A stretch of DNA of 64,000 nt from Rhodospirillales bacterium (GTDB lineage Bacteria; Pseudomonadota; Alphaproteobacteria; CACIAM-22H2): contig CANFCX010000002.1 in assembly GCA_947445225.1 (NCBI GenBank), forward strand, positions 26,119 through 90,118, given 5' to 3'. Positions 4,636 through 11,239 of this stretch are shown piece by piece. Under the pieces are notes generated by a model. The model was not told the origin of the DNA. It saw nothing but the letters and a program-made list of their open reading frames with translations, and ran no database searches. A program made the translations under genes and the position numbers. Each line of letters starts with the position of its first letter. Position 1 is the first letter of the stretch.

Positions 4636-5406
4636 CTAATAGCGGTTTAGGTTGTTGTAAACGGCATGGGCGATCGGCAGTAAATCGTCGCGTGGCAGCT
4701 TCCCGACCAGCGCATAGGCCAAAGCCCCGTCGAGCCAGAAGAAAACGGACGCGCCTTCACCCTGAACGAAACGGAAGGCGGTCTCCTGGGAACCGCCGCC
4801 CGGCGCCGCGGCATGATAGAGGGTGACGCGGTTCCCACGATCGTTTTCATACATCAATTGGCTGGCCGCGCTGCCATCGGCCGAAGGCAGCAACCTGCCC
4901 CCGACCAGCGTGTAGCCTTCGCCGTCGAGGCGGGGCGCCTTGATCGGATGGCCCATCCGTTTGGACAGCCATGTCACGAGATGATCCTGCTCATTGGCCG
5001 CCACCTCCACCGGATGACGGACCTCGCCGACATAAACGACATGCGCGGCCACGGCCTGGCGGGTGATGGCGAAGACCGGCTGGGTGGCGTCGAGATTGGC
5101 ACCGCGCAGAAACCAACCTCCAGCCAGGCCGGTCACGACCAGAGCCCCGCCCGCGGCAATTCGCGCGGCGCGAGACGCCCAATTTCGGCGAGGCGCCGCC
5201 CACTCGGTTGGAAAGGGCTCCGCCAGCAGCGGATCGTACAGCGCGTGGAGTTCCTGATTGATCCGGCGATACGCGGCAACCCGCTCCGCCTCCTCCGGTT
5301 TGGCCGCCATCAGGGCTTCGACCGCGGCCTTGCGAACCGGATCGAGCTGCCCGTCGACATAAGCGTGCAGCTCGGTTTCACCGATGGTTTCCGGCGTCTG
5401 CGTCAT
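4636..5406 (-). CDS. anti-sigma factor (zinc-finger/transmembrane type) partnered with the upstream ECF sigma
   Basis: N-terminal anti-sigma motif (LHAYVDGQLD), central hydrophobic segment, start overlaps ECF sigma stop by ATGA. Confidence 0.6.
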   Translation of the reverse strand: MTQTPETIGETELHAYVDGQLDPVRKAAVEALMAAKPEEAERVAAYRRINQELHALYDPLLAEPFPTEWAAPRRNWASRAARIAAGGALVVTGLAGGWFLRGANLDATQPVFAITRQAVAAHVVYVGEVRHPVEVAANEQDHLVTWLSKRMGHPIKAPRLDGEGYTLVGGRLLPSADGSAASQLMYENDRGNRVTLYHAAAPGGGSQETAFRFVQGEGASVFFWLDGALAYALVGKLPRDDLLPIAHAVYNNLNRY

Positions 5407-5948
5407 TTGATTCTCCGCAACGCCGGCACCATGGTCCCCGCCATGGTCACGCGCAGCTTTTCACGCCCGCGATGCAGCCGCGACATCACCGTGCCGACGG
5501 GTATATCGAGGATGGTCGCCGCGTCCTGGTAGCTCGACTCTTCGAGGCCGACCAGCAACACGACCGCGCGTTGGTCCTCCGGGAGCAAGGCCAGGGCGTC
5601 GGCGAGCGAGCGAATTTCGAGCCGGGCTTCCTGTGACGCCGGTGTCGAGGCACCCGCACCGGCATCGTCGAGCGATATCGGGTGGGGCTGGCGATGATCC
5701 TTGCGTCGGATGTTAGCGTGAAGGTTGTGCATGATCGTAAATAGCCACGTTCTCATATTGCTGCCGCGCCGCCAAAGGTGAAGGCGGCTCCAGGCGCGTT
5801 CCAGACAATCCTGGACGAGGTCTTCCGCCGCTTCGCGGTTCCGCATCAGCGCGATCGCGTATCGCCGCAAATGCGGAATCTGCTCGACGACTAGGCGACG
5901 CCGGTCCTCACTCACCCGTGACTGCTCCCCGGTCCGCCCGCCAAACAC
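5403..5948 (-). CDS. ECF-subfamily RNA polymerase sigma-70 factor
   Basis: Region 2 (DLVQDCLERAW, TWLFTIMHNL) and region 4 (YQDAATILDIPVGTVMSRLHRGR). Confidence 0.85.
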   Translation of the reverse strand: MFGGRTGEQSRVSEDRRRLVVEQIPHLRRYAIALMRNREAAEDLVQDCLERAWSRLHLWRRGSNMRTWLFTIMHNLHANIRRKDHRQPHPISLDDAGAGASTPASQEARLEIRSLADALALLPEDQRAVVLLVGLEESSYQDAATILDIPVGTVMSRLHRGREKLRVTMAGTMVPALRRIK

Positions 5949-7356: not shown

Positions 7357-7611
7357 ATGCAAATCCCACCCAGCTTTTCCGTCTTGGAAGCCCTGTCGCG
7401 ACACGTCGCGCCCGCCAATGGCGGGGCCCCGCGTCCGGCGCCGGTCAAACCGCAACCACCCACAACGGATGTCGCGCGAACTCAACCGCTGACGGCGACC
7501 AATACTCGTCTAGCGGCCGCGGCCCCAACCCAACCGGGGGCCAATAAACCGGTCGCAATTTCCCATCTGCCCACGGTTCCGCGCGGGAGCCTGCTGAACA
7601 TCCTCGTCTGA
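7357..7611 (+). CDS. hypothetical proline-rich small protein (doubtful)
   Basis: ORF only; no recognisable domain; low complexity. Confidence 0.15.
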   Translation: MQIPPSFSVLEALSRHVAPANGGAPRPAPVKPQPPTTDVARTQPLTATNTRLAAAAPTQPGANKPVAISHLPTVPRGSLLNILV

Positions 7612-7654
7612 TTCTTGGGGATAGGCGGGGCGGGCTTAAAGCCAAACCCTGTCG

Positions 7655-7692
7655 CCCAAAAAAGGAAGTCGGCGACCCATGGGGCCGCCGAC
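7655..7692 (-). terminator. candidate rho-independent terminator for the small KA-peptide gene
   Basis: Inverted repeat gtcggcga / ccgccgac (7668-7675 / 7685-7692) followed on the minus strand by TTTTTTG (plus-strand caaaaaa 7655-7661). Confidence 0.35.
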
Positions 7693-7771
7693 TGAAGCAG
7701 GCCGGGGGCAAATCGCGCCCGGACGCGATGGAGTCTTCAAACGGCCGTTAGGCCGGTGAAAACTCAACCAA

Positions 7772-7861
7772 CTACTTCTTCTTAGCGGTCTTTTTTGCGG
7801 CGGGCTTCTTCGCCACGGTCTTCTTCGCCGGTTTCTTTGCAGCAGCCTTCTTCACTGGCAT
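7772..7861 (-). CDS. 29-aa lysine/alanine-rich small basic peptide (MPVKKAAAKKPAKKTVAKKPAAKKTAKKK)
   Basis: Hand translation of minus strand; ATG 7861..7859 preceded 7 nt upstream by AGGAGG; TAG stop at 7774..7772; followed on minus strand by a hairpin plus T-run at 7692..7655; below 60-aa track cutoff. Confidence 0.35.
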   Translation of the reverse strand: MPVKKAAAKKPAKKTVAKKPAAKKTAKKK

Positions 7862-8212
7862 GTCATTGACCTCCTATTGGTCACACTAAGGACCGGGTCG
7901 GCTGAGGGTGGTGGCTGTCGGTACCGCGGAGCTTTTTCGCGGACTTGATCATCGCATGATGATCGGGCCACCCCTCGACCACTGCGCACAACGCGCAACC
8001 AGTCCTAGGCGGCAGAAGATCATGGCAATTCAACCCCCTGTCAAGAAAATTCAATATCCTGTAGGTGAGCTTTGCAAATCATCCAAATATTGCGTATGCC
8101 CCCAATGGTTGCGTACATGAAAATTATCTACACACGCCATGGTATGACACTTCCGCAGTGCGCCTGAGAGAACTGCACAAACTAGGCGATAGCGGAAAGA
8201 TCGTCATGCATC

Positions 8213-9160
8213 CTACGATTGCAGCGGTTCCGACAACAACCCCCGCGCAAATTCCACCGCATCGAACGGCCGAAAATCGTCCGCGCCTTCGCCGACGCCG
8301 ATAGCGCGCACTGGCAGCGAAAATTTTTCGGCCAACGCGACCAAGATGCCGCCGCGCGCCGATCCATCGAGCTTCGTCAAAACGAGTCCGCTGACGTCGA
8401 CCATGGCACGAAATGTCTCGACCTGAGCCAGCGCATTTTGGCCGATGGTGGCGTCGAGGATCAGCAGACATTCATGCGGCGCGGTTGGATCGGCCTTACG
8501 CAGGGCGCGCACGATCTTTTGCAATTCCGCCATCAGGTCGGCCTTGTTGTGAAGACGCCCCGCGGTGTCGATGAGCAGCAGATCGGCGTCGCGGCGACGG
8601 GCCTCTTCGAGAGCGTCATAAGCAAGAGACGCGGGATCGCCGCCTTCGGGGCCAACGATCACCGGACAGCCGACGCGTTCGCCCCACAGCCGCAATTGGC
8701 TGACCGCGGCGGCGCGGAAGGTGTCGCCGGCCGCCAGCACGACCCGTTTGCCTTCGGCGCCGAACAGCCGGGCGAGTTTGCCGACCGTCGTCGTCTTGCC
8801 GCCGCCATTGGCGCCGACGACGAGCACGACGAAGGGCCGGCGCGCGGGGTCGAGCACAAAGGGACGCGCCGCCGGTGCAAGACGGAGGGCGATTTCGTCG
8901 GCCAAAGCAGCGCGAACGTCGTCGGCCGTGACGCCACGGTCGAATCGCCGCGTCTTCAAGGCGGCAACCAGGGCCGCCGCCGTTCGCGGCCCCAAATCGG
9001 CGCCGACGAGCAACTCCTCCAGCCGATCGAGAGTGGCCTCATCGAGTTTGCCGCTGGTGAGCGCGGCGGCGATGCCTTCGACCAAACGCGAGGACGAGCG
9101 GCTCAACCCGGATTTGAGCCGAGCCAACCAGCCGCGGCCCTGGGCTGTCGTTTCGGTCAT
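8213..9160 (-). CDS. ftsY: signal recognition particle receptor FtsY
   Basis: SRP GTPase motifs (GANGGGKTTTVGKLA, DTAGR, TKLDGSARGG); start set to ATG 9160 (MTETTAQGRGWLARLKSGL). Confidence 0.85.
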   Translation of the reverse strand: MTETTAQGRGWLARLKSGLSRSSSRLVEGIAAALTSGKLDEATLDRLEELLVGADLGPRTAAALVAALKTRRFDRGVTADDVRAALADEIALRLAPAARPFVLDPARRPFVVLVVGANGGGKTTTVGKLARLFGAEGKRVVLAAGDTFRAAAVSQLRLWGERVGCPVIVGPEGGDPASLAYDALEEARRRDADLLLIDTAGRLHNKADLMAELQKIVRALRKADPTAPHECLLILDATIGQNALAQVETFRAMVDVSGLVLTKLDGSARGGILVALAEKFSLPVRAIGVGEGADDFRPFDAVEFARGLLSEPLQS

Positions 9161-9167
9161 GCCGCGA

Positions 9168-10406
9168 TCACGCCAGGATGCGGGCGCGTAGCTCTTCGCC
9201 GTCGATGGCCTCCAGGCGAGCCCTGACCAAGGCACCGACCGGCGTCTCGCGATCGACGCGGACGGGCGCGAAATGTTCGCTGCGCCCGAACGTCCCATCC
9301 TCGACCAGAACATCGGCGGTCGCGCCAACGAGGCCGGCAAGAAATCGCCGTCTCAACTCGGCGCCCTGCTCCCGCAATTGGGCGGCGCGTTCGCGCCGGA
9401 GCGCGACTGGAATCTGCGGCATCCGCGCGGCCGGAGTTCCGACTCGCGGCGAATAGGGAAAGACATGCAGAAAGGCGATGCCGCATTCGTCGAGCAACGA
9501 TCGCGTGCCCGCCGCCATCGCCTCGGTTTCCGTCGGAAAGCCGGCGATGAGATCGGCGCCGAAGGCGATATCGGGACGTACCGCGCGCAGGCGCCCGCAC
9601 AAACGTACGACGTCGGCGCGGCTGTGCCGGCGCTTCATGCGCTTGAGGATGAGATCGTCGCCGGATTGGAGGCTGAGATGGAGATGGGGCATCAGCCGGC
9701 CTTCTTCGGCGAACAGGCGAAACAGATCGTCATCCACTTCGGCCGGATCGACCGAGGACAGCCGAAGCCGGGCAAGCCCGGGAACCGCATCGAGCAAACC
9801 GCGGATCATGCCGCCAAGATGCGGGCGCTCCGGCAGATCGCCGCCATAGGAGGTCAAATCGACGCCGGTGAGAACGACCTCGCGATAACCGGCATCGACC
9901 AACGCCTTGAGTTCTTCGATGATGTGCGCCGGCGGCACGCTGCGGCTGGGTCCACGTCCGTAGGGAATGATGCAAAAGGTGCATCGGTGATCGCAGCCGT
10001 TCTGCACCTGAACGAAGGCGCGGACCCGTTCGCGAAAACCGGCGGCGAGATGCCCGGCGGTCTCGCGAACCGCCATGATGTCGCCGACGATCACCCGAGC
10101 CTCGGTGTCCGCGTAGCGTTCGGATAAGAATTTCTCGCTGTTGCCCAGGACGCGGTCGACCTCCGGCATCGCGGCGAAGGCGCCCGGATTGATCTGGGCG
10201 GCACAGCCGGTGACGACGATGCGGGCGTTCGGTCGTTCGCGCCGCAACCGGCGAATCGCCTGCCGCGCTTGCCGCTCGGCTTCCGCCGTGACGGCGCAAG
10301 TGTTGACGATGACAAGATCGTCGTGCCCGGCGGTGGCCGCGCGTATGGCCTCGGATTCATAAGCGTTGAGCCGGCAGCCGAAGGTGACGATCTCGGGACC
10401 GCTCAT
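9168..10406 (-). CDS. mtaB: tRNA t6A37 methylthiotransferase MtaB (MiaB-like radical SAM)
   Basis: N-terminal MTTase domain (TFGCRLNAYESE), radical SAM CxxxCxxC (CDHRCTFC), TRAM-like C-terminus; ATG 10406. Confidence 0.8.
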   Translation of the reverse strand: MSGPEIVTFGCRLNAYESEAIRAATAGHDDLVIVNTCAVTAEAERQARQAIRRLRRERPNARIVVTGCAAQINPGAFAAMPEVDRVLGNSEKFLSERYADTEARVIVGDIMAVRETAGHLAAGFRERVRAFVQVQNGCDHRCTFCIIPYGRGPSRSVPPAHIIEELKALVDAGYREVVLTGVDLTSYGGDLPERPHLGGMIRGLLDAVPGLARLRLSSVDPAEVDDDLFRLFAEEGRLMPHLHLSLQSGDDLILKRMKRRHSRADVVRLCGRLRAVRPDIAFGADLIAGFPTETEAMAAGTRSLLDECGIAFLHVFPYSPRVGTPAARMPQIPVALRRERAAQLREQGAELRRRFLAGLVGATADVLVEDGTFGRSEHFAPVRVDRETPVGALVRARLEAIDGEELRARILA

Positions 10407-11239
10407 GACAGCAACGCCCCGTCCATGATTCCGGTGAAGGCGATTGCGGCGGGTCCGGTCATCGTGACGTGTCCGTTGGGCAGCCACTCGATCGACAACT
10501 CACCGCCATCCAGGGCGACCGCGGCGCGGCGTCCCGAAAGACCGCGCCGATGGGCCGCGACAATCGCGGCGCAGGCGCCGCTGCCGCAGGCCCGGGTGAG
10601 GCCGGCGCCGCGTTCCCACACGCGCAGACGCACCCGGTCGGGGGCCAAGACCGTGGCCACGCCGACATTGGCCCGTTCGGGAAACAGGGCGTTGTGCTCC
10701 AGAACCGGTCCCAGGGTCGCGAGGTCCACCGCGTCGGCGTCGTCCACGAAGAAAACCATATGCGGGTTCCCCATGCTCACGGCGACCGGCTCCTTCAGGG
10801 GACCCAGCTCGATCGGCAGCCTTTCCGTGTCCATCGCGCGGGCCAGCGGAATGTCGCGCCACTCGGTTCGCGCCGGCCCCATATCCACGGCGATGCGTCC
10901 GCGATCGGCGCGCGCGGCCTCGAGTCGTCCGGCCGCGGTCTCGATGGAGACGTGGTCGAGACCGGATTCGGTCATCAGGAGTTGGGCGACGCAGCGTGTG
11001 GCGTTGCCGCAAGCGGCAACCTCGCCGCCATCGGCGTTGTGAATCCGCATGAAGGCGTCGGCCCGCCCGTTTCGTGGCTTTTCGATGACGATAAGCTGAT
11101 CGCAGCCGATCCCGGTATGGCGGTCGGCGATGTGTCGCGCCACGCGGTCATCCGGAGCAAATGGCTCGCCGCGAGCGTCAACGACGACAAAGTCGTTGCC
11201 GAGCCCATGCATCTTGAGAAAAGCCCGTCCGCTCGTCAT
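10403..11239 (-). CDS. dapF: diaminopimelate epimerase DapF
   Basis: MHGLGNDFVVVD and catalytic-Cys regions (CGNATRC); stop overlaps mtaB start (ATGA). Confidence 0.85.
   Translation of the reverse strand: MTSGRAFLKMHGLGNDFVVVDARGEPFAPDDRVARHIADRHTGIGCDQLIVIEKPRNGRADAFMRIHNADGGEVAACGNATRCVAQLLMTESGLDHVSIETAAGRLEAARADRGRIAVDMGPARTEWRDIPLARAMDTERLPIELGPLKEPVAVSMGNPHMVFFVDDADAVDLATLGPVLEHNALFPERANVGVATVLAPDRVRLRVWERGAGLTRACGSGACAAIVAAHRRGLSGRRAAVALDGGELSIEWLPNGHVTMTGPAAIAFTGIMDGALLS

Follow-up and report, generated by a model that had tools for sequence, protein, structure and literature searches.

Is a 29-codon open reading frame (ORF) rich in lysine codons a gene in its own right and, if it is, what could so short and so basic a product do? 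The question arises on the minus strand of the stretch of DNA analyzed here (the window, 64,000 nucleotides, G+C content of 64%), where the ORF occupies positions 7861..7772, ends in a TAG stop at 7774..7772, and encodes MPVKKAAAKKPAKKTVAKKPAAKKTAKKK, a peptide with 13 lysines and 0 acidic residues. An earlier note on this DNA had given the translation exactly. It had also placed an AGGAGG Shine-Dalgarno (SD) sequence 7 nt upstream of the ATG; inspection of the sequence located the motif at 7875..7870 (minus strand), 8 nt from the ATG (7861..7859). The hairpin and T tract that it had reported downstream are present as an intrinsic terminator at 7655..7693 (minus strand), which starts 78 nt 3′ of the stop codon and consists of a stem at 7693..7667 (12 bp, 9 of them G-C, loop of 3) followed by TCCTTTTTTG, with a T run at 7663..7658. 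The intervening 3′ untranslated region (3′ UTR; 7694..7771, minus strand) folds into two hairpins, GAGUUUUCA..UGAAGACUC and a UCCGGG-containing one at approximately 7721-7700, and the segment from the stop codon through the terminator (7775..7640) is more stably folded than its shuffled versions (z = −3.0). The peptide was indeed unannotated: an exact-sequence look-up of MPVKKAAAKKPAKKTVAKKPAAKKTAKKK among 15 billion proteins returned 0 matches.

Lysine accounts for 13 of the 29 codons, against 6 in the best other 29-codon window in any frame of the 64 kb and a maximum of 5 to 6 per 29 codons in simulated sequence (30 first-order Markov runs). Across five neighboring genes, 21 of 1,679 codons (1.25%) specify lysine, and the micro-gene is the only short ORF within the window with an (AAR)3 run. 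A chance origin of the ORF is excluded by this density of lysine codons. The unit around the ORF is larger than previously described: the extent of 7655-7861 given in the earlier note held the ORF, the 3′ UTR, and the terminator but overlooked a promoter and a 152-nt leader, with which the transcription unit runs on the minus strand from about 8056 to 7655, promoter to terminator. The promoter block (8014..8056, minus strand) is composed of TATTGAATTTTC, a TTGACA −35 element (8044..8039), 17 nt, and GATCTTCT as the −10 region (8021..8014). We infer that the unit is transcribed from this TTGACA promoter and that the ORF is translated.

Relatives of this cassette were sought in two ways. An FtsY-based scan, with one genome per species, yielded 80 loci, and a metagenome collection scanned by the promoter block only yielded 18 contigs. 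The resulting family has 29 loci. Of 81 genome sequences, 11 carry the cassette (the window and 10 of the 80 species representatives), and the 18 metagenome contigs supply the rest; every member comes from an uncultured MAG or a metagenome contig. The two closest relatives, L001 and L002 (FtsY identity of 94% and 91%), carry the same 29-codon ORF in the same SD context. At the equivalent place, L011, L015, L016, L019, L052, L062, L065, and L066 carry ORFs of 12 to 16 codons (12 in L015), and these short-type peptides take the forms MAKKKKAKKKKL, MAAKKK[A/S]KKK[A/G]KKK[V/I], and MAAKKKAKKK[A/T]AKKK[K/Q]. The family layout comprises a perfect −35 element, a conserved −10 block, a leader of 123 to 152 nt, an SD, an ATG, a lysine-rich ORF of 12 to 29 codons, and a terminator, and every member has AGGAG at a similar spacing to the ATG. 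An SD, an ATG, and a lysine-rich ORF lay 123 to 136 nt past the promoter block in all 16 metagenome contigs with enough downstream sequence, and all 24 promoter-pattern loci with enough downstream sequence had the three elements; a profile search added three loci. The metagenome loci were thus selected via the promoter motif, whereas the choice of the 11 genome sequences (the window, and 10 found by FtsY similarity) did not depend on it; the pattern in both sets is the same.

The promoter motif shared by the family is TTGAWTTTNCTTGACA-N16/17-GATSTTCT, that is, an AT-rich stretch, a perfect TTGACA, a spacer of 16 to 17 nt, and, in most members, GATSTTCT. Its −10 element is weak against the Escherichia coli consensus. 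The poor match to TATAAT explains why a generic sigma-70 scanner did not call the window promoter; nor did the scanner call those of three short-type loci. Short-type promoters have an additional TTGTCAA about 22 bp upstream of the −35 TTGACA(A), with which it forms a 6- to 7-bp inverted repeat (L011 5141..5180 and equivalents; alignment A4, columns 12 to 47). The window's lineage lacks this repeat, which could be an operator or a divergent −35.

A covariance model of the leader (R1) recovered exactly the 29 loci in 793 kb searched, and nhmmer, the covariance model, and an (AAR)3 scan found no diverged cassette in the other 70 ftsY loci, the scans yielding one spurious ORF, in L022. In a neighbor-joining tree of FtsY, the 26 cassette loci with a usable FtsY formed one clade with 0 cassette-less members inside, which indicates a single origin of the cassette followed by complete retention, down to about 55 to 67% FtsY identity. 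Furthermore, a profile built from short-type members only had the window promoter as its sole significant match in the 64 kb (E = 8e-6), with the ORF as a weak match, and this supports homology between the 29-aa and the 12- to 16-aa forms. A group of uncultured Alphaproteobacteria thus seems to make a tiny, genetically encoded polycation.

We then asked of the ORF what the earlier note had named as its test, i.e., whether the reading frame is conserved beyond the nucleotides. It is in L001 and L002, which have five wobble changes and one V-to-M replacement, and in distant relatives, where the SD, ATG, and lysine-rich ORF keep their place although indels (in frame) and the choice of stop codon differ. 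When ORFs of one length class are compared, 20 of the 26 variable sites fall at codon position 3, with 19 extra synonymous codon types versus 6 amino acid changes. Length differences, of −9 and +3 nt, preserve the frame, and each of TAA, TAG, and TGA serves as a stop. Lysine makes up 45 to 67% of the residues of the family peptides (8 to 13 lysine codons in 12 to 29 codons, 84% of them AAG across the family). Between the lysines stand A, S, G, T, P, V, and M, and the peptides end in I, V, L, K, or Q; no variant contains an acidic residue or arginine. Judged by these substitutions, the variation is of the kind typical of coding sequence.

Pairwise comparison of the window, L001, and L002 placed this variation against neutral-like sites. 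Divergence was 17.6% at ftsY third positions (L001 versus L002 only), 17 to 19% in the spacer between ftsY and the promoter, and 15 to 23% beyond the terminator. It was 0 to 2% in the promoter, 1.3 to 2.6% in the leader, 3 to 7% in the ORF (nearly all of it at wobble sites), and 4 to 6% in the 3′ UTR and terminator. The promoter and leader are thus about 10-fold more conserved than neutral sites among close relatives, and the wobble sites of the ORF vary roughly at the neutral rate in the window's lineage. The edges of the conserved block are sharp, with the promoter at its start and the terminator at its end. That this is a chance ORF or a nonfunctional intergenic remnant might be argued from its shortness, its low complexity, and the lack of anything similar among annotated sequences. 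Such a reading is scarcely credible next to a lysine density far beyond chance, retention in every sampled member of a deep clade (to about 55 to 67% FtsY identity), a coding-type substitution pattern, and conserved-block edges that coincide with the promoter and the terminator. The earlier proposal of a genuine small gene with its own ribosome-binding site and terminator is supported by the conservation of the frame in relatives, and the micro-gene is very probably a functional, translated gene.

By these comparisons the leader appears to be the most constrained part of the unit. In the window it spans 152 nt (7862..8013, minus strand), with a core rod that matches the family model at 7991..7859 (68.7 bits against R1), and in the window's lineage an outer helix and a hairpin are added at the 5′ end. 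The minimum free energy (MFE) of the window leader is −65.8 kcal/mol (z = −3.3). In predicted folds, the leader of every member is one long imperfect hairpin, P1 to P4, with the SD and AUG lying 3′ of the rod, either unpaired or in short, weak local hairpins (MFE folds). In the model-fitted alignment, 72% of cells were paired, compared with 35 to 45% in slid controls; both partners had changed in 16 of 33 pairs (matched or exceeded by 9 of 500 shuffles), and none of the 500 attained the covariation score. A plain MAFFT alignment gave weaker but concordant numbers. Because both alignments use a structure derived from one member, the modeled structure is, in our view, moderately to well supported in its basal helices and weakly supported toward the apex. 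Searches of Rfam 15 with the window region (E ≤ 10), with four related loci (E ≤ 1), and with the whole window (gathering score) gave no meaningful match to the leader or transcript, and the leader is a candidate for a new class of cis-regulatory RNA. We also considered an ORF of 48 aa at 7998..7852 (minus strand), which overlaps the leader, and rejected it as not conserved: short-type leaders, e.g., that of L016, contain no start codon.

Short-type leaders carry further motifs just upstream of the ORF. An invariant AUCGGAA stands just 3′ of the rod, at about −27 to −21 from the AUG (L016 4826..4832), and there are CsrA-type GGA motifs and a PhaF-like NNGGA at about −27; all are absent from the window's lineage. 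Binding by the KPAA tail of PhaF requires AUGGA/CGGGA elements at −27 to −31 (PMC12818456), and the likeness of AUCGGAA to these elements is one of resemblance only.

At the other end of the transcript, a strong hairpin followed by a T run lies 53 to 109 nt past the stop codon in 21 of 22 distinct 3′ UTRs. The exception, L015, was missed by the T-run filter and has a 14-pair terminator hairpin; across the 3′ UTR folds, terminators measure 11 to 17 bp. A first hairpin begins 0 to 6 nt past the stop codon, and no sequence conservation of the 3′ UTR was found between subfamilies. CUCC-like motifs in the 3′ UTR were considered as partners of the transcript's own SD and rejected, their duplex energies being no better than those of shuffles (z of −1.7 to +1.3). 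All subfamilies share the promoter, the helices at the base of the leader, the SD and ATG, and a stretch of lysine codons interrupted only by small neutral residues.

Upstream of the cassette, all on the minus strand, lie genes for diaminopimelate epimerase (dapF, 10403..11239), a MiaB/MtaB-family radical-SAM enzyme (9168..10487), and FtsY (8213..9166), with the micro-gene next downstream of the last. The cassette stands directly 3′ of dapF-mtaB-ftsY wherever upstream sequence exists; among the metagenome contigs with upstream sequence, ftsY is directly upstream in 17 of 17, usually with mtaB and dapF. In the three short-type loci scanned, ftsY has a small terminator-like hairpin of its own before the cassette promoter, which marks the cassette as a separate unit. 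The ATG of ftsY at 9166 is 1 nt past the stop codon (9170..9168) of the MiaB/MtaB-like gene, suggesting translational coupling. A 375-aa FtsY ORF with a TTG start has an extra stretch at 9164..9340 (minus strand); FtsY of L001 and L002 starts with MTETTAQG, equivalent to the window's ATG 9166, and the 317-aa protein read from that ATG has full SRP54_N and GTPase domains. The longer form is probably an overextension. The window contains no tRNAs.

Downstream, the micro-gene converges with a conserved 84-aa ORF of unknown family (7357..7611, plus strand), beyond which are genes for a glucose/sorbosone dehydrogenase and an EcfG-type ECF sigma factor. The 84-aa product, MQIPPSFSVLEALS...PRGSLLNILV, has no Pfam family; homologs with matching N- and C-terminal motifs occur in L011, L016, L019, L052, and L090, and tblastn matches occur in L093 and L098. 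The homologs usually adjoin a pair formed by an EcfG-type ECF sigma factor and a putative anti-sigma factor, and the 84-aa product is likely a real, uncharacterized small protein of this stress-sigma neighborhood. In the window, the ECF sigma factor (5403..5948, minus strand) matches the PhyR sigma2 domain (EcfG-type general-stress sigma). The 256-aa ORF that follows it (4636..5406, minus strand) has no Pfam match and probably encodes the anti-sigma factor, and several relatives keep both genes in synteny with the cassette region.

The gene after the cassette is convergent in the window, L001, L002, L011, L016, L088, L089, L090, and L094. Elsewhere, the next genes are co-oriented and unrelated between lineages (SugE-like, a membrane protein of about 287 aa, and proteins of about 340 and 385 aa). 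In L052, a sub-threshold match to the Guanidine-II (mini-ykkC) riboswitch at 5526..5578 (plus strand; 26.3 bits versus a gathering score of 32) immediately precedes the gene for the SugE/Gdx-like small membrane protein. These contexts bear on whether the cassette is a classical ribosome-dependent attenuator, in which a leader peptide of lysine codons would control read-through into a lysine-related gene. The short ORF rich in one codon type, the structured spacer, and a terminator 53 to 109 nt downstream are all features of such a device, for which the Thr/Lys-codon leader sORF of Sinorhizobium meliloti is a precedent (PMC10117765). However, the next gene is convergent in the nine loci listed above, including the window, and the co-oriented ones differ by lineage; antiterminator pairing is not evident in MFE folds of the 3′ UTR, where the hairpins are independent; and the structured leader is 5′ of the ORF instead of between the ORF and the terminator. 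We rejected a cis attenuator on the downstream gene context, and it is a very improbable explanation of the cassette.

A broader alternative places the function in the RNA itself. Because the RNA parts are under tighter constraint than the ORF, the main function could lie at the level of RNA: the transcript would be a dual-function or regulatory RNA, the lysine run would serve as a sensor of lysyl-tRNA supply or of mtaB-type modification of tRNA-Lys or as a ribosome loader, and the peptide would be a by-product. In addition to the conservation of the leader and 3′ UTR, covariation supports a leader structure, and only lysine codons, not a specific peptide sequence, are kept across subfamilies. 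The first hairpin of the 3′ UTR is so close to the stop codon that a terminating ribosome would melt it. Moreover, the upstream operon includes dapF, of the lysine pathway, and an enzyme of the MiaB/MtaB family; MtaB modifies tRNA-Lys(UUU). Yet there is no cis target, the downstream genes being convergent or unrelated, the sequence of the 3′ UTR differs between subfamilies, its pairing with the SD does not exceed that of shuffles, and the folds contain no obvious antiterminator that would compete with the very stable terminator. The non-lysine positions are never acidic, which suggests selection on net charge. As for the neighborhood, the dapF-mtaB-ftsY order, which is probably widespread in Alphaproteobacteria, is also present in the cassette-less relatives from the same FtsY-based scan, and the linkage of the cassette to these genes is therefore probably historical. 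On balance, we regard an RNA-centered function as unlikely, though it is still a serious competing reading.

The reading that we prefer is that the peptide is a polycation that binds a polyanion and whose expression is controlled by the leader; we give it a probability of about 0.5. According to this proposal, the product would be a translated microprotein made almost only of lysine and small residues (28 to 29 aa in the window's lineage and 12 to 16 aa in relatives). It would act electrostatically: in effect an oligolysine encoded by a gene, this soluble polycation of the cytoplasm would bind RNA or ribosomes, DNA, or polyphosphate, as do the Lys/Ala/Pro tails of H1-like bacterial proteins. 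The leader would set the amount of peptide via mRNA stability and/or translational control, possibly with feedback by the peptide; that it is so strongly constrained suggests that production of the peptide is regulated. As no homology to characterized protein families was found, function is argued from composition alone. In the simplest reading, selection acts on net positive charge. The arrangement of residues differs between helix-compatible KKKAKKK in the short forms, which have neither proline nor KPAA, and proline-containing KKPAAKK in the window's lineage. With length and pattern so varied, only charge, or only lysine codons, is conserved; this fits nonspecific binding and fits an irrelevant peptide equally well. 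A toxin of type I or another membrane-active small protein was considered and rejected, as the peptides have no hydrophobic stretch.

Small, strongly basic products are also known from ribosomes, and the micro-gene could specify a lineage-specific ribosomal or ribosome-associated miniprotein, present in stoichiometric amounts like bTHX, bS22, bL37, or eL41, with the leader providing autogenous control. Its size and charge are those of known tiny, lineage-restricted ribosomal proteins found only through structures, and a perfect −35, a strong SD, a highly constrained leader, and 100% retention in the clade would all suit such a protein. The known examples, however, are rich in arginine, have aromatic or hydrophobic contact residues, and keep stable lengths, while the family peptides are built on lysine and alanine without arginine, range from 12 to 29 aa, and differ in spacing pattern. 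Also, the cassette is outside ribosomal-protein operons, and no ribosomal-protein family of NCBIfam or Pfam matched. Because the peptide has neither arginine nor aromatic residues and its length is not fixed, we consider a ribosomal protein less likely than a polycation, and doubtful overall.

The only Pfam match to the window peptide was HC2 (PF07382; residues 4 to 29, 15.1 bits, E = 0.026), which is below the gathering score of 40 and compositional in nature, and NCBIfam returned only noise (E of 1.9 to 6.7), neither match being a ribosomal protein. A phmmer search of 1.84 billion representatives with a 33-aa in-frame extension gave 0 matches, a null result made uninformative by the low complexity of the query. 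Of the earlier suggestion that the peptide is like histone H1-like, nucleoid-associated, or ribosome-associated tails, the resemblance therefore stands and membership in such a family does not, given the HC2 score and the NCBIfam result. The H1-like KKPA/KPAA pattern is moreover peculiar to the window's lineage, the commoner form in the family being a 12- to 16-aa oligolysine, MAAKKKAKKKAKKKI.

Genes of 12 to 29 codons are invisible to annotation pipelines and nearly so to tryptic proteomics, because trypsin would cut such a peptide into pieces of one to a few residues. The cassette illustrates that such a gene can persist throughout a deep clade of bacteria, complete with a promoter, a structured leader, and a terminator of its own. 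A functional peptide would imply that an oligolysine made by ribosomes can serve in bacteria for tasks usually ascribed to polyamines, Mg2+, or long H1-like tails, and tiny polycationic peptides would then merit a systematic search in other GC-rich genomes, where runs of lysine codons stand out sharply. A bolder and rather unlikely extension is that the clade encodes a ribosomally made “peptide polyamine,” whose synthesis would be governed by a new cis-regulatory leader RNA responsive to the peptide itself or to the state of polyanions and cations in the cell. The peptide would be either a previously unseen component of the ribosome or nucleoid or a general counter-ion of nucleic acids. Were this true, few stand-alone bacterial genes with a trans-acting product would be as short as the 12-codon gene of L015.

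Neither a stand-alone poly-lysine micro-gene nor its leader came up in our searches of Rfam, Pfam, NCBIfam, and the searchable literature. Several known systems share some of its features. Among RNA-based systems, hisL, pheL, trpL, and SEP5 of S. meliloti have in common with the cassette a short ORF dominated by one amino acid, a structured RNA, and an intrinsic terminator; the cassette differs in having neither a regulated downstream gene nor an evident antiterminator and in its long structured leader 5′ of the ORF. SgrS/SgrT, RNAIII/hld, and SR1/SR1P are likewise stand-alone transcripts of about 300 to 350 nt with a promoter and terminator of their own, a tiny ORF, and strongly constrained noncoding parts (dual-function sRNAs encoding small proteins are reviewed in PMC12310071). 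Unlike them, the cassette has no recognized base-pairing seed or target, its 3′ UTR differs from one subfamily to another, and Rfam has no entry that matches it.

Among proteins, bTHX, bL37, and eL41 are tiny basic ribosomal proteins. Together with bS22 (PMC10081302) and bL38 (PMC11851116), both tiny, basic, and lineage restricted, they resemble the micro-gene product in being 24 to 50 aa long, extremely basic, and encoded by easily missed genes; they occur only in certain phyla and work through rRNA binding. The micro-gene peptide departs from them in its lack of arginine and aromatic residues, its variable length and pattern, and the position of its gene outside a ribosomal-protein operon. 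The KPAA regions of AlgP and PhaF, chlamydial Hc2, and the PAKKA repeats of mycobacterial HupB and Ku are like the window peptide in combining lysine with alanine, proline, or threonine without arginine or acidic residues. The Lys/Ala/Pro regions of the KPAA type in AlgP bind DNA and polyphosphate granules (PMC9239181), the PhaF tail binds mRNA upstream of the SD and activates translation (PMC12818456), and PAKKA repeats modulate DNA binding by Ku of Mycobacterium smegmatis (PMC3553676). Such H1-like regions are tails of 100 to 200 residues on folded domains, with 9 to 30 repeats in those of the KPAA type (PMC12818456), whereas the micro-gene peptide is free-standing and has 12 to 29 aa. It is not a KPAA-repeat tail: the window peptide contains KKPAAKK, with one exact KPAA, and KKPAKK, the short-type peptides contain no KPAA, and no domain is attached. 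Our literature searches turned up no free-standing peptide of this kind with a promoter, structured leader, and terminator dedicated to it. Taken together, the sequence comparisons argue that the micro-gene is a real, conserved, and previously unannotated gene, akin to small basic nucleic-acid-binding peptides and to H1-like low-complexity polycations.
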